Positions 41,823 through 60,963 of a stretch of DNA of 64,000 bases are shown one piece after another. A program made the translations under genes and the position numbers. This stretch comes from an uncultured delta proteobacterium. GTDB taxonomy: Bacteria > Desulfobacterota > Desulfomonilia > UBA1062. How positions within the stretch are numbered: the stretch's first letter is position 1; every line of letters starts with the position of its first letter. The notes beneath the pieces are model-generated. The model was given only the letters and a program-made list of their open reading frames with translations, made no database searches and was not told the origin of the DNA. The stretch covers positions 233,724 through 297,723 of the forward strand of contig CAWAUM010000011.1 in NCBI GenBank assembly GCA_963785235.1, read 5' to 3'.

Positions 41823-43437
41823 CTACTGGGCCAGGATAATCGGTTCAAGCAGGATAACCAGCTCTGCGGTCTCAACGCTTTTTATCTGCTGGCTGAAGAG
41901 GTATCCAATACCGGGGATACTGCCCAGTATGGGTATACTCGTATTTTCCTGTTTCAGATTCTTGCTGATAAGCCCACCTAAGGCAATAATGTTTCCGCTT
42001 TTAACACGGATCTGGGTGGTGGCCTCTTCAAGCTGCACTGTGGGCAGCGTATAGACATTACCGCTGATGTCGCGTTCTTCAAGCTTCACTATCCGGCTCT
42101 TGATGGGGGTGATGCTCAGGTTTATCGAACCGGTATCCAGGTCGATATTGGGCACGACACCCAGCATGATGCCATCGAAGATAGAACCCACGGTCACCTC
42201 TGGTGTAGTGATTGTCGGGCCACCTTCTGTGGAAGTGGTTGTGAGCTTGATCTCCTGGATATATGAGGTGTTCGTGCCCACACTGATCAGCGCCGGCTGT
42301 CCGTTGGTCACCCTTATCCGGGGATTCGAGAGGACCTTTATGTCTCCGAATTCCTGCAGGGCGTTCATGGCTGCATTAAAGCCGTGAACGTCCGATTGTG
42401 CCTGGATCACCAGGGCAGGGGTGAGGTTAGTCGTTGAGAGCGCAAGGTTCTGCTGGATCGGATTGAAGACGATATCATTGATACTGAGGTGGGTGCTGGT
42501 CCAATCGATGCCGTACTGGCTTTTATCCTTCAGCGCGACCTCAATGATCTTTGCCGTGATGAGGATCTGTGAATTATAATAGGCCTTGATGGTCTTGATG
42601 TAGGCATCGATACGATCTATGGCGTCTCTCCTGTCATTTACCTCAAGGAAACCCAAGGCCCTGTTGAGGGAATACGACCCATCGCGGGTCAGGGTTGACT
42701 TCACATGATCCTCGATCTGTGTGCAGATGTCGCTGGTTGCTACAGGGATGGTGTCCTTGATGGAAAATTCACCGCTCAGGCCGTTATCACTTGATCCGCC
42801 ACTTGATCCGCCACCTGAGCCGCCACTTGAGGAGCCCGAAGAAGAACTGCTTGTAGAGCTGCTGATAACATCTCCTCCCACAGACATGGTGGTCTGTTTC
42901 TGGGAAGACAGGAAATTAAGGTGATAGGTTCTTGAGTCAGTACCCTTTACAGACAGTGCGCGTCCGTCCACCTTATAGAAAATGTGCAGTGCAGATGCTA
43001 CGTTCTCCAGGGCCTCTTCCAGTGGCGTCCTGTTAAATGCAATGGATACGGGCGGTAGAATAATGGGACCTTTGGCTGTTTGTTTATCTTTGGCCGCATC
43101 AGCTGTTTCTTCGGATAGATCGGTGCCGGTGCCCGCCTTAAGGCGTGAGTCAACCACCAGGTCCAGTCCCGCCCTTTCCGCAACGGCTGCAAATACATCG
43201 GTGAAAGCGGCATTGCTTGCGTTAAGGGTTATGGTCTTGCCTTTCAATGGATTCAGCTTGGCCACCTTTGCTTTGGGCAAAAGACTCTAAAGGTTTTGCC
43301 GCCTCAAGAGGTGTTGCAGCTTCCTTTTCTTTTTCAATGGAGAAATCCTCTTTCTTCATCAATTTGTCTGTGGTGCATCCGGAAAGGAAGACGCAACAGA
43401 TAACCGTGAGTAGTGAATACCTAATAAACTTTAACAT
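41823..43437 (-). CDS. Secretin (GspD/PilQ family) lipoprotein of a second T2SS/T4P-like system; apparent frameshift near 43250
   Basis: The C-terminal secretin domain is GQPALISVG...TSIPILGSIPGIGYLFSQ...AELVILLEPIIL. A Gly/Ser linker follows. The N-terminal lipoprotein signal (VFLSGC) is in the separate ORF 43222-43437. Confidence 0.75.
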
Positions 43438-43870
43438 GAAGGGTCTCCCTGGTACCGTTTTTGTTAGTAGTGATCACCTGGTCCGGTCCAATGGATGATA
43501 TTTGAAAGCTTTGTGTCTTGTCGCCAAGGCGCATTTTCTTTCCATTGATGATACAATAGCTTTGAGAACCTGCCTCAACAATCATACTTACCCTGACCGG
43601 TTCTGCTTCGGCCTTAACAGGAGGGTTTCCATATAAGGCATCCAAAGGCATGGTCCACTCGTGGCGAAAGACATCCCGGATGTCTTTGGCTGCAAGATCG
43701 GAATCGTCTTTAAGGGTGAAGATGCTCAGTTTATCAACATAGGTGAGGAACTCAGGTTGCTCGAGAGTAATGTTTTTGTTTTCGCGAAAAACATATGGAA
43801 CTGCGATGCACAATATAAGCGCAATGAGGGGCAGCATAAAGATCAGGATGAGGTTTTTGTCCAACTTCAT
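43421..43870 (-). CDS. PilP/GspC-like secretin-interacting protein (single TM + C-terminal beta domain)
   Basis: 149 aa with an N-terminal TM helix. The C-terminal IINGKKMRLGDKTQSFQISSIGPDQVI resembles the PilP/GspC homology region. It lies immediately upstream of the secretin. Confidence 0.45.
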   Translation of the reverse strand: MKLDKNLILIFMLPLIALILCIAVPYVFRENKNITLEQPEFLTYVDKLSIFTLKDDSDLAAKDIRDVFRHEWTMPLDALYGNPPVKAEAEPVRVSMIVEAGSQSYCIINGKKMRLGDKTQSFQISSIGPDQVITTNKNGTRETLHVKVY

Positions 43871-44281
43871 TCAGTTCCCGCCCCCAAGCTTGAAGCCTTT
43901 CATGCTGACCGTGATACCTGATGAAGTGCTTGTAACAATTGCCTTTTCAAGAAAGAACATGTCTTGTGCATAGGTCGAGGCAACCTCGGAAAACAGTTTT
44001 TTTACATCGTGGTCCGTCAGGGTGATTTCATAGTCCACGTTGATACCCCGTTCATGGGAAAGGGTGATCAGTTTGGCGCTGTATGCCTTGATGGACTCGA
44101 TCTTTTTTACATATTGTTTACGCTGCTCACTGGTCGCCAGGATCGCTCCCAGCTTGGCCTGGTTGAAGGTTATCTCCCTTGCTGCATGTACGTAATAGGC
44201 AAAGCCGGATATAACCAGCACGGCGCTGATGATGCCCATTATCAGGGCGAGGCGATAATACCTCATGGTTTTATCTCGCAA
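43871..44281 (-). CDS. GspM/PilO-like bitopic inner-membrane assembly protein
   Basis: 136 aa with a single TM helix after a short cytoplasmic N-terminus and a periplasmic alpha/beta domain. Its position between the GspL-like and GspC-like genes supports the call. Confidence 0.4.
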   Translation of the reverse strand: MRDKTMRYYRLALIMGIISAVLVISGFAYYVHAAREITFNQAKLGAILATSEQRKQYVKKIESIKAYSAKLITLSHERGINVDYEITLTDHDVKKLFSEVASTYAQDMFFLEKAIVTSTSSGITVSMKGFKLGGGN

Positions 44282-45699
44282 TTCAGGCTGAATTCAGCAA
44301 GCTGTTCCTTGTGGTTGTAAGCGGCCTTTGAGACGGGAAAGACCTCCTGCATGGTCATGATGAAAGATGAGAAGATCTCTTTGGATTTCGGGTAGGGAGA
44401 GTTGATGATGCCTTCTATTGCTATCCCGAATGAATTTGCATGAGATGTGCGATGAGCTTCTGCAGCGACAGGCATGGCCCTGCCCTTGGGAATGTCTTCC
44501 TGCAGGGAGGACCTGTTGACCTCGATCCTTGTAATGAAGACATTGGCCGGTACTCCCTGGGTTATGGTTTGTACAATTGATTGCAACTTGGGCTCAGCCT
44601 GGAAATCTTTATAGGTATCGACGATGGTGTTGATATTCGTCAGGTCAAGATTTTTGCTCAGGGATGTATAATCGTCTTCAAGCTCTTTGAGCTGCTTGGA
44701 GCTCTTATAAATTGCCGAATTGGTCCTCTTCTCCAAGGCCTCGGCCTTTGTGGTGTTGCTCCACCCCAATGCAAAAAACACAAAGGCCATCAGGATCATT
44801 ACCAATGATATGGCGCAAGAGATTTTTGCATATCCCACAATCCTTCTGGTCCGGTGCAGTTTTTCAGGGGTGAAGTCATAGCAGGGTTTCATGGCGGTTC
44901 CGAAGAGCACGATTGCAGCGGCGTCCGGATCTCCGGTTTCACTCAGGCTGAAAGGGACTGTATGGATGTTATGCTTTTCGAGATCGGATATATTGATCTC
45001 TCCTTGTCCTATATAGTAGATCTTCTGGACCTTTTCCTGGTTGGAGCTCTGCAGCATGGAGGTCATTTCCCGAATGCCGGAAACCGTATCGGCCTGGGCA
45101 TCGAAGGACTCGGCATAGTTAACGGTTATGAGGTAATAGATGATCCCGGATTTTGCGCCGATGATCCGGATGAAACGGGTGTCTTCATAGACGATGATCA
45201 CCATGTTTTTGTCAATGGAACCCACTGCCGAGGCGATGGATGACTCGATGGGGCAGAACATGTCCACAAGGGCCTCATCCTCGTCAATGAGATCGGTCCT
45301 GGTCAGTTCATTTGAAGGGATGGCCAGGTAGGAATACCTGCCCTTGAGGTTGTCTATATCCTGAATCTTGGCAAAGGCGACATGGTAAGTGTCCTTGAAG
45401 AGACCGAGTTTATCAATGGTAGATCGGATATGGGCTGTTGTGGCCTCCTTGCTGATACGGGAAAACTCACCCACATCCGAGTAGATGCCTCTGGATGAGA
45501 AGCATATGGACATGCCGGGCGCCTTGCGCGAGATGTCTGTCAATGAAGTGGAATCGACCTTCTTCATGTCTTTAAGGACGATCTTCTGTCCGGCGCCGGA
45601 ATAGGATGCAATGCAATGCTCCTCTTCGCCCAGGATAACGGCAATGCCCTTTTTCGGCCCCATTTTCATCGAGATAAATTTAGTCAATATGTCATTCAT
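44263..45699 (-). CDS. GspL-like / PilM-PilN fusion-like assembly protein (cytoplasmic actin-like domain, TM, periplasmic domain)
   Basis: 478 aa with one central TM helix (AISLVMILMAFVFFALGW), a cytoplasmic domain of about 290 aa before it and a periplasmic domain of about 160 aa after it. The architecture matches GspL. Confidence 0.45.
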   Translation of the reverse strand: MNDILTKFISMKMGPKKGIAVILGEEEHCIASYSGAGQKIVLKDMKKVDSTSLTDISRKAPGMSICFSSRGIYSDVGEFSRISKEATTAHIRSTIDKLGLFKDTYHVAFAKIQDIDNLKGRYSYLAIPSNELTRTDLIDEDEALVDMFCPIESSIASAVGSIDKNMVIIVYEDTRFIRIIGAKSGIIYYLITVNYAESFDAQADTVSGIREMTSMLQSSNQEKVQKIYYIGQGEINISDLEKHNIHTVPFSLSETGDPDAAAIVLFGTAMKPCYDFTPEKLHRTRRIVGYAKISCAISLVMILMAFVFFALGWSNTTKAEALEKRTNSAIYKSSKQLKELEDDYTSLSKNLDLTNINTIVDTYKDFQAEPKLQSIVQTITQGVPANVFITRIEVNRSSLQEDIPKGRAMPVAAEAHRTSHANSFGIAIEGIINSPYPKSKEIFSSFIMTMQEVFPVSKAAYNHKEQLAEFSLNCEIKP

Positions 45700-45773
45700 A
45701 TTTGTGAGTGTAGAGGATAAACCTCTCCACTTACTATGTTCTCGGAATTACGATTTGGTTTCTTTAGGATATT

Positions 45774-46412
45774 TTAAGGGAGTAATCCATGGAGATACGT
45801 GAGGCTCACAGTCTCGAGGATATCATCATAATTTGAGTTTATTAATGCAGAAGGAGAGGCGAATTGGTTATTATCACTGTTCGTGATACGCCCATCTCCG
45901 GTGTCGTCATTGGGAGTGTCTGCCCGCAGGTTTTCTCCCCCGGAAAGAACGACAAAGGCCACCTTCATGTTTCCATTGTCACAGAAGAGATCCGGAGCTG
46001 TTGTTCCATTGATAAGCTGACCGATTGTTGTTTTAAGCGTGGCGGGCGTAGTTGAGGTCAGATGTGATTCAACGGAATAAAAGAGGGTGGTCTGATAAGG
46101 GTCCTTGCCATTGATGCCGAGCGTTACCCAGGGCAGATAGCCATTTAGTCTGTTAGTAGTTTCAGCCCCATTGATGTTAGCGCTGGCAAACGGCAACCTT
46201 CCTGTGGCCAGGGCATACCCGATGATGGCGGTCCTGACTTCTTTGACAAACATCCGGTCATCCTTCAACTTGTTCTGCTTGATCAGCATGGGGAGGAGTT
46301 GTGCGCCAAGTCCCACAAGGATGCCGACTATCACGAGCACAAAGGCCATCTCGATGAGGGTAAACCCCTTTCGTGAAAAAGGCTTGCTCAGGCAGCAGCC
46401 TCTCCTTGTCAT
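45774..46412 (-). CDS. Prepilin-type N-terminal cleavage/methylation domain protein (pseudopilin)
   Basis: The class-III signal is SRKG|FTLIEMAFVLVIVGILVGLG, with E at +5. The likely start is MTRRG at 46412. The track ORF starts further upstream. Confidence 0.7.
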   Translation of the reverse strand: MTRRGCCLSKPFSRKGFTLIEMAFVLVIVGILVGLGAQLLPMLIKQNKLKDDRMFVKEVRTAIIGYALATGRLPFASANINGAETTNRLNGYLPWVTLGINGKDPYQTTLFYSVESHLTSTTPATLKTTIGQLINGTTAPDLFCDNGNMKVAFVVLSGGENLRADTPNDDTGDGRITNSDNNQFASPSALINSNYDDILETVSLTYLHGLLP

Positions 46413-46428
46413 AAGGTCATTGTTCACC

Positions 46429-47643
46429 CTAGCCACCCCCAAGCTTGGACATGAGGTCGTAAACCGGACCGATAAGGGAAATGACGATGAAGACGAAGAT
46501 GCCGCCCGTTATGACTATGGCAATGGGCTCAATCATCTTGCCCAAGATGTCTACAAAACGCGATGTCTTCAATTCGTAGGTATCTGCAAGATATTTCAGC
46601 CTCTGATCCAGGGTACCGGTCTTCTCGCCCACGCTGACCATCTTCAACGTGATGGCATCAAAGAATTTCGTTACAGTGAAGGCCGTCAGCAACGAATTGC
46701 CCATGTTGGTTTCATTACGTATACGTATGATGACCGAGCGGATGAGGTCGTTGTGAAAGACCTTTTCAAGGATATCAAGCGCTTTTGTAAGTGTCACGCC
46801 GGACTGAAGCATGAGGGACATATTCGAGAATACCAGGGTAAGGGTTGAGCATTTCAGCAGATCGCCCACCACGGGAAGACTGAAGGCAACACGGCTCAGC
46901 ATCAATCGTGTTCTAGGAATTTTTCCCAGAATGACAAACCCTATGGTAATCAATCCGAGTGCAATGGGGTATAGCAACCAGTTATCTTTGGAGAATTGGA
47001 CGAAATTGACAAGGCTCAACGTGATATTGGGGAGCTGGACATTGATCTCCTTGAAGGTTGAAACAAGGCGGGGCAGCACGAAAAAGAGCCAGAAGATGAT
47101 GACGCACAGCATGGCAGCCACCACGAAGCCCGGATAGATCAGCGCCCTCTTCACCTGGGAAACAATACTGTCCACCTTTTTTAAATAATTCGCGGTATTG
47201 TCCAGGGCTGTTTGAATGGTACCGGTCTCTTCTCCGATATGGCAGAAAAATATGAGCATCTCGGGAAACACCTCGGGCCGGCGTGAAAATGCCCCTGATA
47301 AAGACTCTCCCTGGGCAATGCCCCCGATGACCTCATCGATTGCATCTCGCAGGCGTTTTACCCTGATGGTTTCCTTGATGCTTTCCATGGATTCCAGTAG
47401 GGGCAGGCCGCTGCCGAGCATGGAGGCAAGGGATTCACAGAATTCCGCTATCTCGATCTTCTTAACTGCCGGCTGGGTAAGGGTCTTGATGGTTTCAATT
47501 ATCTGATACCTCTGTTCGCTGTAACGGATAAGCGTCATTTCCTGAGAGGAAAGGTTCTCCATCAGATCCCGGATGCCCTCGAAATCGCCCTTGGAGGCAA
47601 AGATTGTTCCGTCTTTCTTCAGGGCATTGTACGAAAGGATCAT
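46429..47643 (-). CDS. gspF: T2SS/T4P inner-membrane platform protein (GspF/PilC family)
   Basis: 404 aa with a duplicated T2SSF domain and three TM segments. Confidence 0.85.
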   Translation of the reverse strand: MILSYNALKKDGTIFASKGDFEGIRDLMENLSSQEMTLIRYSEQRYQIIETIKTLTQPAVKKIEIAEFCESLASMLGSGLPLLESMESIKETIRVKRLRDAIDEVIGGIAQGESLSGAFSRRPEVFPEMLIFFCHIGEETGTIQTALDNTANYLKKVDSIVSQVKRALIYPGFVVAAMLCVIIFWLFFVLPRLVSTFKEINVQLPNITLSLVNFVQFSKDNWLLYPIALGLITIGFVILGKIPRTRLMLSRVAFSLPVVGDLLKCSTLTLVFSNMSLMLQSGVTLTKALDILEKVFHNDLIRSVIIRIRNETNMGNSLLTAFTVTKFFDAITLKMVSVGEKTGTLDQRLKYLADTYELKTSRFVDILGKMIEPIAIVITGGIFVFIVISLIGPVYDLMSKLGGG

Positions 47644-49277
47644 TACCGCAAAACCCTCCAGATCTCTGCGAAGCTTGTCGTACCGTTAAGTATCTTGCGG
47701 ATGCCGTCACCCCGGAGCGTTACCATGCCTTCTTCCACAGCCTTGTCTTTGATCTCGAAGGGGTGTGACCCCACAGAGATGAGGCGCTCGATCTCTTTGG
47801 ATATAACCAGGATTTCCGCCACCATGATCCGGCCCAGGTAGCCGGTCTTTATGCACCTGGGGCATCCTACCGGGGCATACAGGGTTGTCCCTTTCTGGAT
47901 GCCGAATACACGGTGCTCTTCGTCGCCTGAATCATATGGCTGCTTGCAGCTCGGACAGAGTGCCCGGACGAGCCGCTGCGCTATGACGCAGATGAGTGAT
48001 GATGATATCATATAGTCCCTCATGCCAAGGTCTTTGAGCCTGGGTACGGCTCCGGAGGCATCGTTGGCATGCACCGTGGAAAGGACAAGGTGCCCTGTCT
48101 GCGCAGCGCGGAGCGCCATGGTCGCCGTATCGCCGTCCCGTATCTCACCGATAAGGATGACATCAGGGTCCTGCCGTAAAAAGGCCCTGACCGCGCTTGA
48201 GAAGATATACCCGGACTTCTCGTTAACCTGGGTCTGGCGGATCAGCGGGAACTGGTACTCAATGGGGTCTTCAACGGTCACGATATTTTTTTCAATGGAG
48301 CTGATCTCCCGCAAGGCCGCATATAAGGTTGTAGTTTTTCCTGACCCTGTGGGGCCGGAGACTAAGACCATGCCGTAGGGCTTGTGCAGAAGATCCCTGA
48401 GCTGGGTAATATCATCAGGATCCAGGCCAAGGCTCCGGATGTTATACAACTCCTCCGAGGAAGCCAGGATGCGCATGACCATGTTTTCCCCATTGGTAAC
48501 CTTTAAGGTAGAGACACGGATGTCATAGTGCTCATTTAAAAAATCAAAGGAGAGCCTTCCATCCTGGGGTTTGCGCTGTTCCGAGATGTCCATCTCGGCC
48601 TTTACCTTGATGCTGGAGATAACCCTGGAGTGCACCTCGATGGGAAAGGAGTAAAACGGGTAGAGTATGCCGTCGATGCGGTAGTGGATCTGTGTTGTCT
48701 TGTTCGTGGGGGTTACGTGGATGTCCGTTGCACGGGAGTTGATGGCGGACATGATCAGCAGCCTCACCAGTTTTTCTGTATCCACGTCGTGCGGATTATA
48801 CTTGGAATGTTCGAGCTGCTGCTCGATCTCTTCTTCTATGGGGTGTTCCAGGAGGTAATAGTCTTTTTCAATGTGCTTCTGTATCTGCGATGGCGATGCA
48901 GCCACAAACCGGATGCGTTTTTTCGAGATGCGTGAGGCAAGGTCTGACAGTTTCGTATTATCCGGTTCGCTCGTGGCTATGGTCAAGGTAGTGTCCTCGA
49001 CACTTATGGGAAGCAGGGAGTTCTCGCGTGCAAATTGCACGGGTAAAGCAGAGAGCGCTTCTTTCTGTGGTGAGAAATGACGCAGCTCTACAAACTCGAT
49101 GCTGAACTGTTTTGCAATGGACTGGGCAAGTTCCGTCTGGGTGACAAGGCCAAGACGGATCAGGATATCGCCGACCCGTTCCTTGGTGGCACGCTGTTCT
49201 ATAAGGGCAAGGCCGATTTCCTTATCGCTGATGATCCCTTCATCTTTGAGAAGATCACCAATGCGTTTTTTCTCCAT
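47643..49277 (-). CDS. gspE: T2SS/T4P assembly ATPase (GspE/MshE family) with N-terminal tandem MshEN-type c-di-GMP-binding motifs
   Basis: Walker A is GPTGSGKTT. Asp box, Walker B and His box are present. The tetracysteine is CPSC...CPRC. The N-terminus has RIGDLLKDEGIISDKEIGLALIEQ and RVGDILIRLGLVTQTELAQSIAKQ, each matching RLGxxLxxxGxIxxxxLxxALxxQ. Confidence 0.9.
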   Translation of the reverse strand: MEKKRIGDLLKDEGIISDKEIGLALIEQRATKERVGDILIRLGLVTQTELAQSIAKQFSIEFVELRHFSPQKEALSALPVQFARENSLLPISVEDTTLTIATSEPDNTKLSDLASRISKKRIRFVAASPSQIQKHIEKDYYLLEHPIEEEIEQQLEHSKYNPHDVDTEKLVRLLIMSAINSRATDIHVTPTNKTTQIHYRIDGILYPFYSFPIEVHSRVISSIKVKAEMDISEQRKPQDGRLSFDFLNEHYDIRVSTLKVTNGENMVMRILASSEELYNIRSLGLDPDDITQLRDLLHKPYGMVLVSGPTGSGKTTTLYAALREISSIEKNIVTVEDPIEYQFPLIRQTQVNEKSGYIFSSAVRAFLRQDPDVILIGEIRDGDTATMALRAAQTGHLVLSTVHANDASGAVPRLKDLGMRDYMISSSLICVIAQRLVRALCPSCKQPYDSGDEEHRVFGIQKGTTLYAPVGCPRCIKTGYLGRIMVAEILVISKEIERLISVGSHPFEIKDKAVEEGMVTLRGDGIRKILNGTTSFAEIWRVLR

Positions 49278-49466
49278 AAGACCCGTTCCCGCTCCTTAAG
49301 CAGTGCAAATTGAGAAATCACTCAAAGATATGTCCCTGCAAGAATCTCCTGTTGGAGAGTAGCCTTTCGGGTTTGTCTTCCACCTTCCTATCACGAGTGG
49401 GTGCATGATGTGTCATGCCCCAAACAACGCACGTGTGGGCCGGAAGACACCATCCTCGTGATACGG

Positions 49467-50060
49467 CTACATTCTCCAGTAGACAGTCTTAACCGTTGTT
49501 GCCGTATAAACAGTGTTGGCCCTCATGGTCCCTGTGTTGTAAACCGCGTCATCATATTTTCTGTCCATTTCCTGGGCAACCTCATAGGGGATCTGGGTGT
49601 ACACGATACAGTTCGCGTTCAGCGGTGTTGCAGACCCTGGGGGAGTAGCCAAATACTGGATGTAGGCCTGGCCTCCAAAGGGGTTTGTAGGGTAATCGTT
49701 AGCCGCTCCGGTATAGCCCCCGTTGATGATCTGTGCCAAGACGAGGTCCTGGAAGAGAACAGAGCGCTCGGTATTCGCATTGATCTGGCCGTTTCCTGCA
49801 GTCGCAGCAGGATCTGTATGGCCCTGTGTCGGGATATTAGCTACAGGTGCATCACCCGGATAATAGTTATACCTGTCATAATAGGTATAGAAGGCCGCGG
49901 TGAGTGAATCCTTCTGGTTGACTAACTTCTTGACCTTTGCATTCTGAATGAGGGCCTCGCCCTTGAGTACGCCTGTAATGAGCAAGCCGATGATCACCAA
50001 CACCAGTGCAAGTTCAACAAGGGTAAAGCCGCCTTTTTGTCGATTTCTAAACCGTTCCAT
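49467..50060 (-). CDS. Major (pseudo)pilin, GspG-like type IV pilin
   Basis: The prepilin leader is MERFRNRQKG|FTLVELALVLVIIGLL. The GspG-like region is NQKDSLTAAFYTYYDRYNYYPGD. Confidence 0.75.
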   Translation of the reverse strand: MERFRNRQKGGFTLVELALVLVIIGLLITGVLKGEALIQNAKVKKLVNQKDSLTAAFYTYYDRYNYYPGDAPVANIPTQGHTDPAATAGNGQINANTERSVLFQDLVLAQIINGGYTGAANDYPTNPFGGQAYIQYLATPPGSATPLNANCIVYTQIPYEVAQEMDRKYDDAVYNTGTMRANTVYTATTVKTVYWRM

Positions 50061-50180
50061 GCATACACCTCCTGATAGAGTAGCGCCTAGCTGTAAGCTC
50101 TAGTAAGCACCCAATCGGTATAATCCACATTCTTCTTTAGTAATTGCTCGATATGGCTTGAATTATGGAAAGGGAAGAGC

Positions 50181-52331
50181 TTATTCTTTATGCGTAATGA
50201 TTCGTCTCCCAAGTGTCAGGGGGGATATGCCCGGTATAGTGGAGATGTCCTTGTTATATACAGCTCCTGTTGAAGATATGAATTTCATGACACCATTGTC
50301 CAGATCAATGGAAGGACCAAAAGCGCTGCCCATAAACATGGCCTCTGACTTTGTTTGCCTTCCAGTGAGGGAATCATACTCTTGAAACATGGATATGCCG
50401 GTGTCAATACCTCCGCAGGGAGAATCTTCTTTCCAGGTGCTTAAGAATAACCTGTTATCCATGATTGTCATGCCTGAGGGTGAGCCTCCTTCAAGGGAGA
50501 CAGACCAAACGATATTCTCTTTGGTATAGCATTCAAGGCGTTTATTACTTGCCACGATGAGGTGAAGCTCCTTTCGCCAATGGAACGGACGTATCTCCAT
50601 AATGGGATTATTGGCGGTGGTGTTTATGATGCCCAAGAGTTCGAGCCTGTTGTTAAAAAGATAGACAAGTCCGTCGGATGTCCCTGCAAAAACCCCAGCT
50701 GTGCACGGATCATAGCGCACGACATTAATGGTATGATTAACTTCGAATTGAGCCGTCCCTATGCCGTTTCCAAGATTGTACGCATATATCGTGGAGCCGT
50801 TACTGATATAGGCCATGGATTCGGATGCGTCGATAAAAGACCCTTTATGCTGCCAGATTATCTGAGGTCCCTGGCCTATACACGAAATGATGCCCAGTCT
50901 GTTCGGGCCTGTTATGACCCGTTCGCCTCTCAGTCGCACCTCGCCCCCTATACCTGTCATGAGCCACGTCAGGCTGCCTTCGGGCATGGTGACATTGAGG
51001 AGCTGATCGCGGGATGTAGTGCAGTACAGGTCTGTCTGTGTGGCTGCAAGGTCATGGGCAAGGCCATTCAGGGAATAACCCGGGCAGGATACCAGGCTTA
51101 AAGGACTGACGACACTCGGTCTGTAAAACCGGCATTTGTCGGTTTTGAGCCATGGCGGATCGAGCCGTGCACGGAGGTTTTTCAGTATCATGTCCTGGTC
51201 GTTACGAACCACTATAGGCTGGGTAACCAGCATCTGTTCAGGAACGAGTATCTCCCGTGCCGGCATATACTGACCCCCGCCCTTTATAGCAACACTTCTC
51301 AGATACGCCGTATCAGGGCCGATAATGTGGACATTGATGCCCAGAGACTTCGCATAGGATGAGACATCATCAAGGCAGTGAGAGCCTTCCCCTTCAAAGG
51401 CAGCATCTTTGGCGTTTCCATCATGATCAAAGTCCTTCAGCCAGGAGGGGAGATGGCCGTCGTTTATGGGAACACCTGCAGTAACCAGAATGATATGTTT
51501 GCCGGATACACACTGCGAAGGGAACAGGGTTGTTGCATTATAAAGTGCCTCCGATAAAGGGGCTGAGCCCGATGCCGGATGAACGCCGTCAAGGCCCTGA
51601 AGGATCTGCTGCCATTCAATGGTAAAAGTTTGGATCAGGCCTTGTGACGTGCTCATAAGGGACACTTCACACAGATCCAGTGATTCAAAGAGCGACTTTG
51701 CGTAGGAGAAGGACTTTGTCCACACTGACATTGCACCTGTCAGGCTGCCGAGTGCCGGGGCCCTTTGATATGAGTTGCCCCAGCTTCCCTTGAAATAGGT
51801 GCCCTCAGCGTTCGTGTAGGTGTCTTCAAACTCACAGATATCACTGATGTGGGTTATGCCGCCTGTGGCCCATTTTGAGTAGAGCGCATCGTCTAAGAAA
51901 TCTTGGCCGGATGATGTAATCGTGCTTAATGAATCATCGATGATAATTATGATATGTGGTCTCTGGGCAATCCGGGTGGTGCCTTGTGGGATATCCGCAC
52001 TCTGTTCCCTTAGTGCCACACACCAGGAATATGACTGCATGGCGCTGGTTGCATGTTCGGTGAGCCTGGTGGAAAAACATATATGGTCCCACCCTTCAGG
52101 CGCCACAAGCAGTTTATGGGTTGCGGATGGCATAGTCCCGTTTTGGGGAGCAAAGAGCTGATCTTTAATAATACGATAGAAGGCGTTGCTCGATTTCATA
52201 TGGTACAAGGTTATGGAAGCGGACGCCATGGTAAGCCCCAGGATCACGGTAAGGAGTAGGAGTACAAAGGCAAGGATAAAACCTTGCTCATTGGATGGGG
52301 GATGATAAAGAGAGTTCCTTCTCTGTTCCAT
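50181..52331 (-). CDS. Large modular pilin-like protein with vWA (MIDAS DxSxS) domain and C-terminal beta-rich domain (PilY1-like / tip adhesin candidate)
   Basis: 716 aa. The pilin-like N-terminus is NEQG|FILAFVLLLLTVILG. HIIIIIDDSLSTITSSG is a vWA MIDAS motif, and a conserved Thr motif (HIILVTAGVP) is downstream. Its start overlaps the upstream minor pilin gene. Confidence 0.55.
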   Translation of the reverse strand: MEQRRNSLYHPPSNEQGFILAFVLLLLTVILGLTMASASITLYHMKSSNAFYRIIKDQLFAPQNGTMPSATHKLLVAPEGWDHICFSTRLTEHATSAMQSYSWCVALREQSADIPQGTTRIAQRPHIIIIIDDSLSTITSSGQDFLDDALYSKWATGGITHISDICEFEDTYTNAEGTYFKGSWGNSYQRAPALGSLTGAMSVWTKSFSYAKSLFESLDLCEVSLMSTSQGLIQTFTIEWQQILQGLDGVHPASGSAPLSEALYNATTLFPSQCVSGKHIILVTAGVPINDGHLPSWLKDFDHDGNAKDAAFEGEGSHCLDDVSSYAKSLGINVHIIGPDTAYLRSVAIKGGGQYMPAREILVPEQMLVTQPIVVRNDQDMILKNLRARLDPPWLKTDKCRFYRPSVVSPLSLVSCPGYSLNGLAHDLAATQTDLYCTTSRDQLLNVTMPEGSLTWLMTGIGGEVRLRGERVITGPNRLGIISCIGQGPQIIWQHKGSFIDASESMAYISNGSTIYAYNLGNGIGTAQFEVNHTINVVRYDPCTAGVFAGTSDGLVYLFNNRLELLGIINTTANNPIMEIRPFHWRKELHLIVASNKRLECYTKENIVWSVSLEGGSPSGMTIMDNRLFLSTWKEDSPCGGIDTGISMFQEYDSLTGRQTKSEAMFMGSAFGPSIDLDNGVMKFISSTGAVYNKDISTIPGISPLTLGRRIITHKE

Positions 52332-52980
52332 GGTATCTTGACCTCATGCGAATTGTCAGATCATTGCCTGAAATCGTTGGATGAAAGAGGACTACTGCCT
52401 CTGCAAGCAGTTGGTTGTTCCGGTAGAGGCCGTCTCCCTTCAGTTCATAGTGGATAGCCGGGACCGCCCTGTTGCCTTGTACAGGCATTATGGCGCATGT
52501 CAGAGGGAGGGTTTTTTTATCCAGGCCCCGTGAATAGTTGTGGCCTACAACACAGGGGCCGTTCTCGGTTATTATTCCAAGGTCGGCCCAGAAGTCTGCG
52601 CGGCCGTCATTGTCGATATCTACGGTATCGAGTATTGCAACCCTTTCAGCTGAGGAATTGATGAGTGCATAGTAAGGTGCCGGATTGGTCAAGGATATGC
52701 TGATACCGGGATTTTCAGATGTGACAGGCACCCCTGCAATAAAAAGCTGGCTGCCTTCAATCGCAATCTTAAGGTCCTGCGGGAGCAATAATGCACACTG
52801 AACGAGATCTGCATTCAGCTGGATAGAGGCCTGGCGGAGCGACTGCATGCAATACCATGCCTCTCTCATTTCTTTATGCGTAACAGCCGAAACCTGGTAG
52901 AATTGATAGAGAGCGAGAAAAAGTATTGATGAGCATGCAAGCGCTATAAGCAACTCCACCATGCCCACACCTCTTTCCAT
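52288..52980 (-). CDS. Minor pseudopilin (prepilin-type N-terminal domain, GspJ/PilW-like)
   Basis: 230 aa. The N-terminus MERGVGMVELLIALACSSILFLAL has G at -1 and E at +5. It is the first gene of the operon. Confidence 0.5.
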   Translation of the reverse strand: MERGVGMVELLIALACSSILFLALYQFYQVSAVTHKEMREAWYCMQSLRQASIQLNADLVQCALLLPQDLKIAIEGSQLFIAGVPVTSENPGISISLTNPAPYYALINSSAERVAILDTVDIDNDGRADFWADLGIITENGPCVVGHNYSRGLDKKTLPLTCAIMPVQGNRAVPAIHYELKGDGLYRNNQLLAEAVVLFHPTISGNDLTIRMRSRYHGTEKELSLSSPIQ

Positions 52981-53200: not shown

Positions 53201-54855
53201 ATGGAGCGCATGCAGAGCAGGGGAAATATACTTATCGCGGTTATTGTGGTGATCGCCATTGCCATGACCCTGTTCCTGATTGTACCCCTTGGCGGTAAGG
53301 TGGGGCAGCTCAGGGAAGCCACCATCTCGTTCATCTTCCGGAAGCCCCCGCAGTTCACCTCCATGGAGGTCGATGTGGAGGGGGCCCGCAAGGTGGTAAG
53401 AGCGGGTGAGTCACTCAAGATCAAGGGTGGTGAGACCATCATCATCACCAAGGTCCATGCAAATACGTTCTTCGATTCATACCTGTCTGCTGATGTTGTA
53501 GGCTTCAGTAAACCAAACGACATGAATGAACCCATCGATACGGTGGAGATCCGCAATCAGCTCATAGCCGCCGGCATCAAATCGGTCCCCATTGATATTT
53601 TCTACCTCGACCGGAAGATCGCCAAGGTCCCCCTTGAGTTGGATCTGAATGAGCAGGACTTTATCAATCAGATAAGATCAGCCAAGAGTGATGAGGAAAA
53701 GATCTCCCTTTTGCGCTCCGCACATGCAACATTTCCGAAGAATATGTCCTTTCTGGATGAGCTTGATAAGCTCTTGAGTGCTAAAGAAGATTACCAGGCA
53801 CTGGTGGGGATCTATAAGGGGGTTGTGGAAGCCGATCCTGCGAATTTGGCGGCATACTTGAATCTCTCAGCATATTACATAAAGCTGAAGAACTACGATG
53901 AGGCCCTTGCCATGTGCCGGAAAATTATCGATGCGGGCAAGGCGGATGCGGTCATTTACCGCCGCATGGCCTATATCGCAGGCGAAAAGGGTGATCTTGA
54001 AAACCGTGTTGTATACCTGAAAAAGGCCCTTGAACTTGATAAACAAAACGAAGCCGTGGTTGTCGACCTGGCCAAGACCTATGAACAGGCAGGCATGAAA
54101 CAGCAGGCCCTTGATGTGTACCAGTCTGCTTCGGATATTGCCAAGGACAGGGATATCCTTATCCCTCTGATTCAAAATGCGATGAAAAAAGAAGATTATA
54201 AAAAGGCGCTCGATCTTCTGAAGCGCTACATTCAGCGCTACCCCAATGATAAGAATGCCACTTGCTCAGCTTGCCATGGTCATGGGCAAGCTGGGTGATA
54301 CAAAGGCGCAGGTTATATATTACCAGAAGGCGGCTGAACTTTCGCCTTCAGACAGCGTGATCTGGTATAACCTCGGTGTTGCCCGCGAAAAACTCGGCGA
54401 TAACAAGGGCGCCCTTGACGCCTATGACAAAGGTGCTCCAGATGAAGCAGGCAGATATGGATTCCATGCAGGCTGCGGCAGGCCTGTCTTTGAAACTGGG
54501 CCAGTACAAGGATGCATACGCGTATTATTCATCCCTGGCGAAAAAGACATCCAAGAAGGAACACCTTAAGGGACTTGTGAGCGCCGCTGTCGGATTGAAG
54601 GACCAGGACAAGGTTATCGAGGCCGGTACCTTGTTCCTCAAGAACAACAAGGACCATGACGTGGCCATGGCACTCGGGTATGCCTATGAGTCCAGGGCTT
54701 CTACACGTGAGCCCCGGGCAAAGCTGGATGACCTGAATAAGGCCTTGGAGGCATATCAGACAGCCCGTAAGGTCAATCCCGCATCCAGGATTGCAGGCGA
54801 GAAGATACCCGAGCTTAAGATTGAGATCCTTAAGCTCAGGAAGGCAAGGCAGTAA
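53201..54855 (+). CDS. TPR-repeat membrane-anchored protein (two apparent frameshifts near 54250-54300 and 54400-54480)
   Basis: It has an N-terminal TM helix followed by many TPR repeats spread across ORFs 53201-54298, 54246-54569 and 54376-54855. It is transcribed divergently from the pilus/secretion operon. Confidence 0.5.
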
Positions 54856-54896
54856 GGCCGCGTGTGTATATGAGCCCTGGGAGTCAAACACACGTC

Positions 54897-55553
54897 ATGG
54901 ATAGGACGTTTGCCATCGGAGACATCCATGGATGTCTCGATAAACTCGAAGACCTCATAAAGCTCATCGATCCTGGCCCGAAGGACAGCCTGATTTTTCT
55001 GGGTGATTACGTCGACCGGGGCGAATCCGCCTCAGAGGTGATCGATTACCTTATAGATCTTGCGCGCAGGGTGCCCTGTGTTTTTTTGCGGGGCAACCAT
55101 GAGGATATGTTTATCACCTTCTTGGAGTTCGGCTCGAATAAGACGATCTTTTTTGCCAATGGCGGCCTTAAGACCATCGAGTCCTACATCAAGCCCGAAC
55201 GTTTTACCGGCAATGACCAGGTGGCCCGAAGGTTGCCCGAGGCACATAGAGATTTTCTCTCAAATCTCAAGCTGTATCATGAGGATGACGGGTATATTTA
55301 TGTGCATGCAGGCATCAAGCCCGGCAATCCCATGATAGAGCAGGACAGGTATGACCTTCTCTGGATCAGGGACGAGTTCATCTTTTCGCCCACCGGCATG
55401 GAGAAGAAGGTGATCTTCGGGCATACACCCTTTGCCAGGCCCATGGTGAAACCGGATAAGATCGGGATAGATACCGGGGCGGTCTATGGCGGGGTTCTCA
55501 CGGCCATAGAGATCCCGGGCGAAACATTCATCCAGTCCTTCAGGCAGGCATAG
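54897..55553 (+). CDS. Ser/Thr protein phosphatase family metallophosphoesterase (PrpA/ApaH-like)
   Basis: The motifs are AIGDIHGCLDKL, LGDYVDRG and GNHE. The likely start is MDRTF. Confidence 0.7.
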   Translation: MDRTFAIGDIHGCLDKLEDLIKLIDPGPKDSLIFLGDYVDRGESASEVIDYLIDLARRVPCVFLRGNHEDMFITFLEFGSNKTIFFANGGLKTIESYIKPERFTGNDQVARRLPEAHRDFLSNLKLYHEDDGYIYVHAGIKPGNPMIEQDRYDLLWIRDEFIFSPTGMEKKVIFGHTPFARPMVKPDKIGIDTGAVYGGVLTAIEIPGETFIQSFRQA

Positions 55554-55577
55554 GCCTTATAAACGAGAATAACAGCC

Positions 55578-56237
55578 ATGTCCAAGGATTATTACCGGAT
55601 TCTGGAAATATCCAAGGATGCAACGTCTTTAGAGATCAAGAAGACCTACCGCAGGCTCGCCCTTCAATATCACCCTGATCGTAACCCCGATAGACCCGGC
55701 CTATAGAGCATTTCAAGGAGATCACCGAGGCATACGGGGTGCTTATCGACCCGGACAAGCGGCGGAAATATGACATGCAGCGTGAGATTCTCCTTCAACC
55801 GGGAGACGGTGTTCGAAGATATCTTATCCAAATCAGAGTTCCGGGACGTCTTCGATGATCTGCCCATACGAAAAGAATGGATTGACCGCATATTGAACGT
55901 GAGCAAGGTCTTTGCCTATGAGGCCTTTGTGGTGGGAGGCACGCCCAGTGCAATCCTGAGGCGGTCCATGGTGCGCCTGGCATCGCAGGGATTGAACAGG
56001 ATGTTCCATGCAGTCATGGACATGCACGAAAAGGTTGCCATCCCTTCAAGCATTGCCGTGCTCGGGGGATACATAACCCTGGAGTACAGGCCGGGCTTTG
56101 TGAAACACAAGATCCGTGTGAAAATACCCAGGAACACGCAGCAAGGCACAATGCTCAGGGTCCTGGGGATGGGCAGGTCAAGCCCGTCAAGAAAGGCAGG
56201 GGACCTCTATTTGCAGGTGGACATCGAATCGTTGTAA
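55578..56237 (+). CDS. J-domain protein (CbpA/DnaJ-like), two apparent frameshifts
   Basis: The J domain is [34 protein letters not shown], then [23 protein letters not shown] in another frame. The C-terminal DnaJ_C-like [22 protein letters not shown]...GDLYLQVDI is in ORF 55770-56237. Confidence 0.65.
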
Positions 56238-57151
56238 ATGACGATCTGGTTCTTGCCGTGCGTCTTGCCCCAGTACATGGCCGCATCCGCCATTTTGATG
56301 ACCTCGTGCGGATCGCTGGAATCCTTCGGCAGGCTGGAAAGGCCTATGGTGACGCTGACCTCAAGCGTTGATTCAACCGTGCTGCAGATACGCTCTGACA
56401 CCACCACGGCCTCTTCAATGGAGGTTTCGGGGAAGAGGATAATGAACTCCTCGCCGCCATAACGGGCAAGGATGTCGCAGTTTCTCGTGTTATGCTTGAA
56501 CACATGGGACAGGCGCACGAGCATTTCGTTGCCCTATTCATGCCCTTTGGCGTCGTTGTACTTCTTGAAATCGTCGATATCGATCATGGCCAGAGACATT
56601 GTCCTGTTGTACCGCAGGTGTCTCGAAACCTCGTTCTTGAGTACGCTCATGAGGTGCCGGAAATTGTACATGCCCGTGAGTTCGTCGGTGCGGGAGAGGT
56701 TCCGGTAGTAGTCAGCCAGTTCGGCCTCCTCTTTGAGCCTGACCTCTTCGAGGATCCTTTGGATGGTGAGGTGGAGGTGGTCGAGCAGAATCGGTTTGGT
56801 AATAAAATCCGAGGCGCCGAGCTTCATGCATTCCACTGCATCACGAATGGTGCCGTACCCGGTAATCATGACAGCCTGGATATCGGACCTGATCTTTTTG
56901 ATGGATTTCAATAACTCCGAACCTGTCATGCCCGGCAGGTGAAGATCCACAATGGCTATATGAAAGAGGTCTTTCTGGACGAATGCAATTGCCTGCTCCC
57001 CACTCATGGCGGTTGTTACATCAAAATCGTGCCCTAAAAGATACTCTTCAATAAGATCAAGGGTCTCCTGTTCATCATCCACAATCAGGACCCGAGTTGT
57101 TTTCTTCACAAGCGTGGCACCCATCGTATCAGCCGTTCTCCTTGTCCTCAC
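56207..57151 (-). CDS. Response regulator with GGDEF output (diguanylate cyclase, PleD-like); one apparent frameshift near 56525
   Basis: REC is VLIVDDEQE...AIVDLHLPGMTG. The GGDEF domain has RYGGEEF in ORF 56207-56524. Confidence 0.8.
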
Positions 57152-57348: not shown

Positions 57349-58156
57349 ATGCAACAGGCTTGTCTTATCAAGAAGATTGAACAGCATATTGAGAGTATTC
57401 CGACGCTTGAGTCCAGCCGGATGAGGCTCTTTAATGTGCTCCAGGAGGAAGAATCCTCCATAGAGGGTATTGAGCAGGTAATATCCAGTGATCCTGCCCT
57501 TGTAGCCAAAGTGATCAAGCTGGCGAATTCGTCGTTCTACCGTCATGCCGACAGGCATGTGGGAATCCAGCAGGCATTACGCACCATCGGTCTTGACATG
57601 GTGAAATGCATCGCATTGTCCATGGCCGTGATGGAGACCTTCGGCACCCAGACCCCTTCAATGAAGCAGCTCTGGAGGCATTCCTATGCAGTGGCTTATA
57701 TATCAGGACTGCTCGGGAATTCCAAAGCCGAGAAGGAGTGTCTCTTCACCGGGGGGCTTCTCCATGATATCGGCAGGATGATACTGATCTGCAGAGACAC
57801 CTGAACACTATCTTCCCCTTTGCGAATTCACCGGTAGCTGGCCCGATCTGGCATTAGAGCGCGATGTTTTCTCCATGGACCACACAATAATCGGCGAAAT
57901 GATCGCGAAGCGCTGGCATTTTCCGCCGGAAGTCATAGCGCTGATAAGGTATCATCATGAACCAATGAGCCGAGCAACCGCCCTTGTTTATCTGACGGAT
58001 CAGGTCGTCATGCAGCATGAGAGGGGTTTGATCACAGAAGATTTTGAGCAGGAGGTCGGAATCAGAAACCATCTTGGTGATGAGTATAAAGATCTTGTAA
58101 ATACTATTAGACAAAGGTATAGAACGAACACGGTTATATTTGAAAATTTGGGGTAA
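57349..58156 (+). CDS. HDOD domain protein (apparent frameshift near 57800-57880)
   Basis: The HDOD signature is ALVAKVIKLANSSFY...ALRTIGLDMVKCIALSMAV...GGLLHDIGRMIL. The continuation is in ORF 57875-58156. Confidence 0.7.
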
Positions 58157-60292: not shown

Positions 60293-60963
60293 GTATTAAG
60301 AGGATACTCGTTGTGGACGATGAAGAGATCGTCCGTTATTCACTGAAAAATATCCTTACAACCAATGGGTTTGAGGTGGATGAAGTAGGCTCTGCCGAGG
60401 AAGCGCTCAAACTCCTCTATACCAAGAGCTTTCATCTGGTGCTCACCGACCTTGTGCTGGAAGGCATGGGCGGGCTTGAGTTGCTGGAGAACATCAAGGT
60501 TATATCGCCCAGGACACTGGTGATCGTGATTACGGGCTATGGTTCCCTGAAGACCGCTGTGGCTGCCCTGAGGCTCGGGGTGTACGACTATCTCCTCAAG
60601 CCCTGTGACGAAAATGAACTCGTTTTGAGGGTGCGCAGGGCGCTTGAGATGCAGGGTTACGGCACGGAACAGAAAAAACTCCATGAATTAAGCGCCATTG
60701 CCAAGACCGCGGTGACACTCTCGGACAAGATCAATACCCCGCTCAACATCATCCTGGGCAACATCGAGATGCTCGAGCTCAGCCCGGAGCTTGAGAGGAA
60801 CACCAAGATACAAGAGACACTTCATGTCATGGAAACGCAGATATTCACCATCAAGAAGGTAATGGATAAGCTGGCCAGCCTCACGAACGCCGATACCAAA
60901 AGATACCCGGCTTTAAGGGATTATGAGATTATTGATTTGACAAGCGAGGGGGCCAATGATTAG
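60289..60963 (+). CDS. Response regulator receiver fused to a DHp-like (HisKA-like) helix lacking the phospho-His (SDKINTPL)
   Basis: REC is ILVVDDEEIV...LTDLVLEGMGG. The C-terminal helix LSDKINTPLNIILGNIEML aligns to an H-box with Asp in place of His. There is no ATPase domain. Confidence 0.65.
   Translation: MSIKRILVVDDEEIVRYSLKNILTTNGFEVDEVGSAEEALKLLYTKSFHLVLTDLVLEGMGGLELLENIKVISPRTLVIVITGYGSLKTAVAALRLGVYDYLLKPCDENELVLRVRRALEMQGYGTEQKKLHELSAIAKTAVTLSDKINTPLNIILGNIEMLELSPELERNTKIQETLHVMETQIFTIKKVMDKLASLTNADTKRYPALRDYEIIDLTSEGAND

Follow-up and report, generated by a model that had tools for sequence, protein, structure and literature searches.

A pilus assembly ATPase with a predicted MshEN-type cyclic di-GMP-receptor domain in an uncultured Desulfomonilia bacterium

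The DNA analysed here, referred to throughout as the window, is a stretch of 64,000 nucleotides from an uncultured delta proteobacterium of the Desulfomonilia (GenBank assembly GCA_963785235.1, contig CAWAUM010000011.1, positions 233,724 to 297,723 of the forward strand), and coordinates are counted from its first nucleotide. A pilus gene cluster occupies 41823-52980, with its genes all on the minus strand, and the gene under study lies within it at 47643-49277. From its open reading frame (ORF) and its Pfam and NCBIfam matches, this gene was assigned to the assembly ATPases of the GspE/PilB/MshE type, with an ATG start and a product of 544 residues. An earlier note on this DNA had called the same ORF a GspE-like ATPase; the ORF is there, and it is read from the minus strand. 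The ATPase and the core pilus genes are uninterrupted in the window, the ATPase protein sequence was found exactly on two public contigs, and its nearest database proteins carry the annotation 'GspE/PulE family protein [Desulfomonilia bacterium]'.

The C-terminal two-thirds of the protein is a complete T2SSE ATPase (Pfam T2SSE, 420 bits, residues 167-541, model positions 8-370 of 370), in which all expected motifs were located. The core, delimited by the Pfam match and these motifs, spans 47655-48779 on the minus strand and holds, by motif position, the Walker A motif (48330-48356), the Asp box (48255-48281), the Walker B motif (48135-48170), the His box (48069-48095) and two CxxC pairs that make up a tetracysteine motif (47946-47957 and 47853-47864). 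The top NCBIfam match of the ATPase was PilB (TIGR02538) at 495.5 bits, under the equivalog cut-off of 675.65, and GspE (TIGR02533) scored 485.2 bits, under the equivalog cut-off of 630.25.

The N-terminus translates as MEKK-RIGDLLKDEGIISDKEIGLALIEQ-RATKE-RVGDILIRLGLVTQTELAQSIAKQ and was read as two MshEN half-sites. Half-site I, RIGDLLKDEGIISDKEIGLALIEQ, comprises residues 5-28 (49194-49265, minus strand) and aligns to residues 9-32 of Vibrio cholerae MshE; half-site II, RVGDILIRLGLVTQTELAQSIAKQ, comprises residues 34-57 (49107-49178, minus strand) and aligns to MshE 38-61. Both peptides had been given exactly in the earlier note, where they were called consecutive; they are separated by the five residues RATKE (residues 29-33; 49179-49193, minus strand), a spacer of the published length. 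In V. cholerae MshE the layout is two 24-residue motifs and 5 non-conserved residues, 53 residues altogether (PMC5013675). A C-terminal MshEN subdomain with the T2SSE_N fold follows at residues 58-140 (48858-49106, minus strand), supported by the Pfam PF05157 match over the same residues (E = 1.5e-18) and by AlphaFold2 (AF2) predicted local distance difference test (pLDDT) values > 90.

Half-sites were compared with the published MshEN consensus, RLGxx(L/V/I)(L/V/I)xxG(L/V/I)(L/V/I)xxxxLxxxLxxQ, which has 11 specified positions and from which the consensus quoted in the earlier note differs. Half-site I agrees exactly at 8 of these positions, carries Ile in place of Leu at positions 2 and 17 (both conservative) and departs from the consensus once, with Lys at position 7; in half-site II, 9 of the 11 agree exactly and 2 are conservatively replaced (Val for Leu and Ile for Leu). 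The strict published pattern was dropped as a criterion, as both half-sites fail it and so does the second half-site of MshE itself; a hidden Markov model (HMM) and a structure-based alignment were used in its place. The NCBIfam model NF053729 (cyclic di-GMP-binding domain, MshE-related; c-di-GMP_motif) matched residues 5-57 along its full length (positions 1-53 of 53), and its score of 47.8 bits exceeds the curated cut-off of 38 (E = 9.2e-13). A relaxed tandem MshEN pattern occurred once in the six-frame translation of the whole window, at the ATPase. Judged on the sequence, the MshEN match is far beyond chance.

The structure-based alignment was anchored on V. cholerae MshE in complex with cyclic diguanosine monophosphate (c-di-GMP). 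In a phmmer search of the PDB, MshE 5HTL was matched with E = 1.2e-15 and without gaps, ATPase residues 3-105 to chain residues 7-109, so that the MshE number of a residue is its ATPase number + 4. In half-site I, the MshE residues R9, G11, D12, G18, L29 and Q32 are identical in the ATPase, L10 and L25 are replaced by Ile, and V15 is replaced by Lys. In half-site II, R38, G40, D41, G47, L54 and Q61 are identical, L39 is replaced by Val, and L58 by Ile. All polar and glycine contacts are thus the same in the two proteins (R9, G11, D12, G18, Q32, R38, G40, D41, G47, Q61). In ATPase numbering, R5, G7, Q28, R34, G36 and Q57 correspond to MshE R9, G11, Q32, R38, G40 and Q61, and an alignment to the MshE contacts, which the earlier note had proposed as a check, bears it out: the Arg, Gly and Gln of each half-site are conserved. 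The hydrophobic triads Leu25/Leu29/Leu39 and Leu10/Leu54/Leu58 become I21/L25/V35 and I6/L50/I54, all aliphatic. In the MshE structure each guanine is sandwiched between an Arg side chain and a Leu triad, its O6 and N7 are recognised by the backbone amides of Gly and Asp, and the Gln residues form hydrogen bonds to the ribose-phosphate (PMC5013675).

The fold was modelled with AF2 for ATPase residues 1-160, using an alignment with 26 homologues. Mean pLDDT was 91.8, and the model has N-terminal helices at residues 6-12, 18-31, 35-41 and 47-57, followed by an alpha/beta subdomain. When the model was compared with the PDB by Foldseek, the first match was c-di-GMP-bound MshE 5HTL (TM 0.73-0.84, root-mean-square deviation (rmsd) 2.2-2.3 Å, 32% identity), and GSPII-B and GSPII-C entries of Thermus thermophilus PilF took ranks 2-10, c-di-GMP-bound GSPII-B structures coming next after MshE. 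Non-binders were also among the matches, namely XpsE 2D28, PilF GSPII-A 9G1W and the N-domain of Xanthomonas citri PilB with PilZ (7LKM), and the non-binder GSPII-A fitted the model worse (TM 0.61, rmsd 4.4 Å). Since non-binders share it, the fold is a requirement for binding but does not tell binders from non-binders; the motif does.

Across homologues, the tandem motif was found at fixed spacing in all proteins down to 63% ATPase identity. The Gly at position 3 and the terminal Gln of both half-sites are invariant down to approximately 48% identity, and the first Arg is often Pro in the group at 48-52% identity. As far as the alignments tell, the MshEN motif is strongly conserved throughout the family. 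In one sublineage, the turn glycine of half-site II (ATPase residue 43) is replaced by Ala (RLALVT); the homologues with Ala-43 are P0022, P0024, P0025, P0027, P0029-P0031, P0036-P0039 and P0041.

The genes around the ATPase were assigned by domain matches, motifs and comparison with related loci (numbered L001 upwards), and all are on the minus strand. The first cluster gene (52288-52980) encodes a minor pilin or pseudopilin of 230 residues with an N_methyl motif and is kept in L004, L005, L006 and L013. It is followed by a protein of 716 residues (50181-52331), which the pilus cluster of every close relative also encodes, with position and length kept, and for which Pfam (E <= 10) and NCBIfam gave no credible match. 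An N-terminal hydrophobic segment was seen in this protein, and a DDSLS stretch at about residue 130 resembles, by eye, the metal-ion-dependent adhesion site (MIDAS) motif of von Willebrand factor A (vWA) domains; it could be a PilY1-like tip protein or a minor-pilin-associated protein. A prepilin-type pilin of 197 residues (49467-50060; N_methyl / IV_pilin_GFxxxE) lies directly upstream of the ATPase. Beyond the ATPase are a platform protein of the GspF/PilC/MshG type (46429-47643, 404 residues; Pfam T2SSF twice, E = 1.5e-47) and a prepilin-type pseudopilin (45774-46442, approximately 217 residues by comparison with L006; N_methyl motif, tblastn). Three genes for proteins of 478, 136 and 149 residues (43421-45699) occupy the position of an alignment subcomplex. 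No credible match to these three was returned by Pfam (E <= 10) or NCBIfam, and all related loci have them ahead of the secretin gene, in conserved order and sizes; from position only, they were inferred to be MshI/J/K-like or PilM-N/O/P-like. The last gene (41823-43437) encodes an MshL-like secretin lipoprotein (TIGR02519 MshL, Pfam Secretin), in which a 1-nt insertion near 43271 splits the frame; the gene is intact in L013, where its product has 537 residues.

Against NCBIfam, the secretin scored 245 bits with MshL (cut-off 250.2), 104 with GspD and 99 with PilQ. Genes for MshM (AAA) and MshN (TPR) were sought, and neither is inside the window's cluster; a TPR gene adjoins it divergently. 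In relatives at about 50% identity, L008 (a metagenome contig) and L009 (Dissulfuribacter thermophilus), an AAA_22 (MshM/ExeA-like) gene is part of the cluster. It stands after the platform gene, in place of the pseudopilin gene (12828-13658 in L008; 12849-14051 and 18049-18879, including TPR, in L009). The secretin of L009 passes the MshL cut-off at 262.7 bits, and its gene is followed by one for a TPR protein. By gene content and these scores, the L008 and L009 clusters are more MSHA-like (mannose-sensitive haemagglutinin pilus-like) than that of the window. The system was read as an MSHA-like type IV pilus, a label that rests mainly on the secretin and on the more distant relatives. DnaA (6123-7469), leucyl-tRNA synthetase (20332-22902) and YidC (34294-35658) are also encoded in the window, which places the pilus cluster in a housekeeping chromosomal region.

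The same scores bear on whether the machine is instead a type II secretion system (T2SS), its pilins forming a pseudopilus and c-di-GMP gating protein secretion. The GspE score of the ATPase (485 bits) nearly equals that of PilB (495), the best match of the platform protein is GspF, and the pilins match GspG, GspH and GspJ weakly; moreover, PA14_29490, a T2SS-associated ATPase of the MshEN type, binds c-di-GMP (PMC4624772). However, the GspE, GspF and GspG scores are all far under their equivalog cut-offs, the secretin is far closer to MshL (245 bits) than to GspD (104), no equivalent of GspC, GspL, GspM or GspK was detected in the window by Pfam or NCBIfam, and relatives have MshM-like and TPR (MshN-like) genes. 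A T2SS was therefore kept as a minor alternative and is unlikely.

The sequence shows the domain with its motif, the intact motifs of the ATPase and the pilus gene neighbourhood, and the model gives the predicted fold; that the ligand is bound, which way regulation runs and where the signal comes from are inferred. By HMM, contact residues and fold, the N-terminus of the ATPase qualifies as a bona fide MshEN domain of the c-di-GMP-receptor type, and the protein is, with good confidence, predicted to be a c-di-GMP receptor. The first 57 residues would form the four-helix MshEN_N module in a binding-competent state, with each 24-residue half-site clamping one guanine of a single c-di-GMP. Each base would be held between the Arg side chain and the Ile/Leu/Val triad; its O6 and N7 would be recognised by the Gly and Asp backbone amides, and the terminal Gln would form a hydrogen bond to the ribose-phosphate. 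If the ATPase behaves like V. cholerae MshE, it would be activated as cellular c-di-GMP rises, which would favour pilus extension and promote attachment to surfaces, and falling levels would favour retraction or pilus loss. In V. cholerae, c-di-GMP on MshE promotes MSHA extension and low c-di-GMP favours retraction (PMC7096442, PMC4624765, PMC4624772). The ATPase sits in an MSHA-like cluster, and c-di-GMP-promoted extension is therefore likely here. The preferred reading, which we regard as probable by this analogy, is that the ATPase is the extension ATPase of an MSHA-like pilus with a binding-competent MshEN domain, activated by c-di-GMP drawn from the general pool. Of the gating of filament assembly through MshEN claimed in the earlier note, what holds is the domain itself, and the gating is reasonable from the MshE precedent; the attribution of the signal to a neighbouring GGDEF/HDOD module is not supported, and the source would most likely be the general cyclase pool rather than specifically the neighbouring REC-GGDEF protein.

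Several observations weigh against the preferred reading. The ATPase is an equivalog of neither PilB nor GspE, the secretin falls just below the MshL cut-off (the intact orthologue in L006 has 244 bits), and the secretin gene is frameshifted in the window. Of the six Leu in the MshE triads, four are replaced by Ile or Val in the ATPase, and position 7 of half-site I is Lys, which is not hydrophobic. The AF2 model may be biased towards the 5HTL conformation. A study of PilF found that GSPII-A restored to the consensus still did not bind, with an N-cap helix extension and tight inter-subdomain packing to blame (PMC12002112).

That a consensus match is insufficient for binding, and that half-site I has Lys at position 7, would also suit an N-domain that does not bind and instead docks the ATPase to the inner-membrane platform or to a partner such as a PilZ-type adaptor, and non-binding homologues (XpsE 2D28, GSPII-A 9G1W, X. 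citri PilB-N/PilZ 7LKM) do have the same fold. The substitutions that inactivate XpsE are G11V, I19R, L29R, R38G, G40L, L54H, L58C and Q61V, and none of them is found in the ATPase; H33, S39, A41 and R62, the residues of the non-binder GSPII-A, are likewise absent, so that no inactivating substitution of either kind speaks for docking only. Binding by GSPII-A was regained once the N-terminal helix extension and the tight inter-subdomain contacts were removed (PMC12002112). Four residues only precede Arg5 of the ATPase, which would leave no room for an inhibitory helix extension of the PilF type. The positions found indispensable when GSPII-A was resurrected are the first Arg of motif II, the two Gln and the Gly at position 3 (PMC12002112), and all are kept in the ATPase. 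In engineered PilF, Ile at the L54 and L58 equivalents cost approximately 2.4-fold in affinity, and PilF GSPII-B and GSPII-C bind c-di-GMP despite their deviations from the consensus (PMC12002112); in the phmmer search of the PDB, both are further from the consensus than the ATPase. With the motif strongly conserved across the family and the HMM for c-di-GMP-binding versions exceeding its cut-off, a docking role without binding is quite unlikely, and binding by the MshEN domain is retained as the preferred reading.

To the right of the pilus cluster lies a block of signalling genes. It consists of genes for TPR, metallophosphoesterase, DnaJ-like, REC-GGDEF, HDOD, GAF hybrid kinase, REC and REC proteins. 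The TPR (approximately 550 residues), metallophosphoesterase and DnaJ-like genes were assigned by Pfam and form an operon at 53201-56237 on the plus strand, with two frameshifts in the TPR gene and three 1-nt insertions in the DnaJ-like gene. The REC-GGDEF response regulator (56207-57124, minus strand; 305 residues in relatives) has GGEEF and an RxxD I-site and carries an in-frame TAG. A stand-alone HDOD protein (57349-58156, plus strand), with an HD dyad and without GYP, has a 1-nt insertion at about 57796. It is followed on the plus strand by a GAF-PAS-HisKA-HATPase-REC hybrid histidine kinase (58165-60292; approximately 708 residues in relatives), whose gene has one extra nucleotide at about 58680, and by two receiver proteins identified by Pfam (60289-61435; REC-HisKA-like, 224 residues, and REC, 159 residues), in the same order in L011. 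The block keeps its order in L011, L013, L004 and L005 and moves as a unit, and it resembles a multi-step phosphorelay with a REC-GGDEF output. Elsewhere the window encodes a histidine kinase rich in PAS domains (14583-16898) and a response regulator of the sigma-54 activator type (16907-18196).

The REC-GGDEF and HDOD genes are present where the earlier note had placed them, approximately 6.9 kb from the ATPase in window coordinates. That note had called them downstream; relative to ATPase transcription they are upstream, past a divergent operon. The pilus operon extends leftward from its start at 52980, and the rightward operon at 53201-56237 separates it from the REC-GGDEF gene. Because three opposite-strand genes intervene, REC-GGDEF is not co-transcribed with the pilus operon.

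Related loci were then compared for the adjacency of GGDEF and pilus genes. It is kept in L013, L001, L006, L004 and L005, the ATPases of which are 100% to 76% identical. Housekeeping genes flanking the cluster on its opposite side (PHP, LOG, P5CR, CoaE) are equally syntenic, and the adjacency therefore reflects close relatedness rather than selection for linkage. In L002 and L003, whose ATPases are 93% identical, the place of the GGDEF block is taken by che genes, and in contig_6251 (1.08 Mb; ATPase 93% identical) the intact block lies approximately 288 kb from the pilus cluster. Synteny was rejected as evidence of coupling on account of this 288-kb separation in contig_6251. No GGDEF gene was found near the cluster in L007 (63% ATPase identity) or L008 (50%). 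The REC-GGDEF protein is plausibly the output of the phosphorelay of its own block, its place beside the pilus genes being dispensable. Two side observations were made in these loci. In Dissulfuribacter L009, a Lactamase_B-ODP (flavodiiron-like)-GGDEF protein of unrelated architecture is encoded at 20803-21647, three genes past the secretin. P0025 (L002/L003) and P0027 (contig_6251) belong to the Ala-43 sublineage, and both come from loci without the GGDEF block beside the pilus cluster, perhaps by coincidence.

The HDOD protein matched Pfam HDOD and HD only, with the HD dyad and no GYP motif, and HDOD proteins were without phosphodiesterase activity where tested (PMC6543031, PMC4114195). No c-di-GMP or cyclic GMP-AMP (cGAMP) riboswitch or other Rfam family was found, in the window at gathering thresholds or in 49-58 kb at E <= 1. 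As c-di-GMP is diffusible, a single GGDEF gene nearby implies little.

These data were weighed against a dedicated local circuit, in which the phosphorelay of hybrid kinase and REC proteins would act on REC-GGDEF, c-di-GMP would pass from it to the ATPase, and the HDOD protein would be an antagonist or partner. Such a circuit would fit the placement of REC-GGDEF about 7 kb from the ATPase, adjacent in five loci (76-100% ATPase identity), and back to back with HDOD, hybrid-kinase, REC and REC genes whose order is kept in L004, L005, L011 and L013. It would also fit the intact REC phospho-acceptor residues, GGEEF and I-site, and the presence in Dissulfuribacter of a different GGDEF protein three genes past the secretin. 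Against it, the REC-GGDEF gene is outside the pilus operon with three opposite-strand genes between, the block is 288 kb away in contig_6251 and replaced by che genes in L002 and L003, no GGDEF gene is near the cluster in L007 and L008, and housekeeping genes are just as syntenic. In addition, the HDOD protein is of a kind without documented phosphodiesterase activity, and the GGDEF clade has Asn for the guanine-binding Asp344. A dedicated local circuit is accordingly doubtful. The claim that the GGDEF/HDOD module gates the ATPase, made in the earlier note, is weakened by the separate operon, the mobile block, an HDOD domain that is not a known phosphodiesterase, and Asn344; such gating is unsupported and rather improbable.

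The catalytic domain of REC-GGDEF was compared with that of PleD. GGEEF, the DID...ND residues (Asp327 and Asn335 equivalents) and RNCD (RxxD) are present. The position of PleD Asp344 is Asn in the window and in 119/119 full-length homologues, down to 59% identity; the Asn codon is at about 56531-56533 (in 'GHE-stop-GNEML'), and the homologues are P0121-P0240. The guanine-binding Asp344 is described as essential (PMC7288161), and Ser in its place yields promiscuous Hypr enzymes; known Hypr enzymes have Ser or Thr there, always with GGDEF and never with GGEEF (PMC6456294). A literature search for Asn at the GGDEF specificity position together with GGEEF found no report. The product of this clade is uncertain, and judged on these residues the enzyme may simply be a normal or weak diguanylate cyclase.

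The Asn also bears on the identity of the ligand, which could in principle be another cyclic dinucleotide such as 3',3'-cGAMP made by the Asn344 REC-GGDEF. MshEN_N does bind cGAMP weakly (dissociation constant 3.3e-4 M), a change at the Asp344 equivalent alters nucleotide specificity in the Hypr enzymes of Deltaproteobacteria, and the Asn is found in 119/119 full-length homologues. However, the half-sites keep their guanine-specific features, the Gly and Asp amides that read O6 and N7 excluding adenine (PMC5013675), and Hypr enzymes combine Ser/Thr with GGDEF, never GGEEF. A ligand other than c-di-GMP is thus very improbable. It is also highly unlikely, if somewhat less so, that an Asn344 GGEEF cyclase with altered output or kinetics serves as a private, phosphorelay-driven module for the MSHA-like pilus of Desulfomonilia; if this were true, a non-canonical GGDEF enzyme and an MshEN receptor would make up a local-signalling pair. 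The Asn344 REC-GGDEF clade is a cheap biochemical target.

Lesions in the window were located by comparison with the independently assembled L013, which encodes the same ATPase protein and is 98.72% identical in nucleotides over 21.6 kb. REC-GGDEF is cut after residue 196 by an in-frame TAG (56534-56536, minus strand), a single C-to-A difference; the codon in orthologues is one for Ser (TCG), Lys (AAG) or Glu (GAA/GAG), and the gene is intact in L001, L004, L005, L006, L011 and L013. Neither this TAG nor the frameshift in the HDOD gene is mentioned in the earlier note. The public gene call for the source contig (P0236) is the truncated product of 196 residues. Recoding of TAG was rejected, as the orthologues have ordinary Ser, Lys or Glu codons at a variable position and the window has about ten 1-nt insertions. 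Apart from the TAG, the GGDEF gene has 27 nucleotide differences from that of L013, 21 synonymous and 6 conservative replacements.

All L013 genes are intact, and 10 of the 12 indels relative to L013 are insertions in the window: in the secretin (about 43271), the TPR gene (54261, 54426), the end of the metallophosphoesterase gene (55554), the DnaJ-like gene (55691, 55703, 55783), an intergenic site (57273), the HDOD gene (57796) and the hybrid kinase gene (58680). They disrupt the secretin, TPR, DnaJ-like, HDOD and hybrid kinase genes. L001 is broken at other sites, mostly in pilus genes. The one-sided bias towards insertions, together with the different lesions of other assemblies, indicates consensus or assembly errors rather than biology, and the lesions in the window are probably assembly errors. 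Nine of the 12 indels fall in 53-59 kb, where the mismatch rate is 2.27% vs. 0.89% and 0.53%. Real pseudogenisation of the block was judged less likely than assembly error, although this clustering in 53-59 kb would fit real decay in this strain. An aminotransferase-like ORF at 63360-63800 (minus strand) turns, after about 50 residues, into Arg/Pro/Gly-rich, nonsense-like sequence, which suggests a frameshift. Gene-level inferences from the window need checking against sister assemblies.

Known systems were compared with both regulators. REC-GGDEF has the architecture of PleD and DgcR (E = 2e-44 and 2e-35, respectively), with REC, a coiled-coil linker and GGDEF carrying GGEEF, the RxxD I-site and the Asp327 and Asn335 equivalents; it differs in that PleD Asp344 (DgcR Asp191) is Asn in the window clade, and in that the window copy has a premature TAG. 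For the ATPase, the N-domain of Xanthomonas XpsE/GspE (2D27, 2D28) has the same overall fold, and the inactivating changes of that domain are absent from the ATPase. GSPII-B and GSPII-C of T. thermophilus PilF (8PDK and related entries) share the fold and the predicted mode of c-di-GMP binding; PilF carries three GSPII domains in tandem, of which one does not bind, whereas the ATPase has one domain, nearer the MshE consensus than any PilF copy. PilB of Geobacter and Myxococcus (5ZFR, 5TSG, 3JC8) likewise has an MshEN-type motif followed by a T2SSE ATPase, and its N-domain was matched to the ATPase by phmmer with E-values of 3e-15 to 3e-12. The PilB spacer is 7 residues long, giving two gap columns in the alignment, compared with 5 residues in the ATPase, and the secretin of the window is MshL-like, not PilQ-like.

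MshEN domains with preserved motifs have been reported in > 10,000 proteins of many lineages, including proteins of gsp and pil operons. If binding by the ATPase is true, MshEN control of type IV pilus assembly extends to uncultured Desulfomonilia, an extension that is expected and opens no new question, because the domain is so widespread and is already in Pfam and NCBIfam models. V. cholerae MshE is the best structural match and has the same order of MshEN_N (24+5+24), MshEN_C and T2SSE ATPase; the two N-domains align without gaps at 32% identity, and every contact made by Arg, Gly, Asp or Gln is the same in both. MshE is encoded in a cluster with an MshL-type secretin, and the ATPase in one whose secretin matches MshL best. 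The ATPase differs in having Ile or Val for Leu10, Leu25, Leu39 and Leu58 and Lys for Val15. Its cluster differs in gene order and has no MshM AAA gene and no TPR gene inside it, and its host belongs to an anaerobic Desulfobacterota lineage. On this comparison of sequences, the ATPase is a further, uncharacterised MshE-like ATPase of an MSHA-like cluster, with an MshEN domain that Pfam and NCBIfam models already flag.

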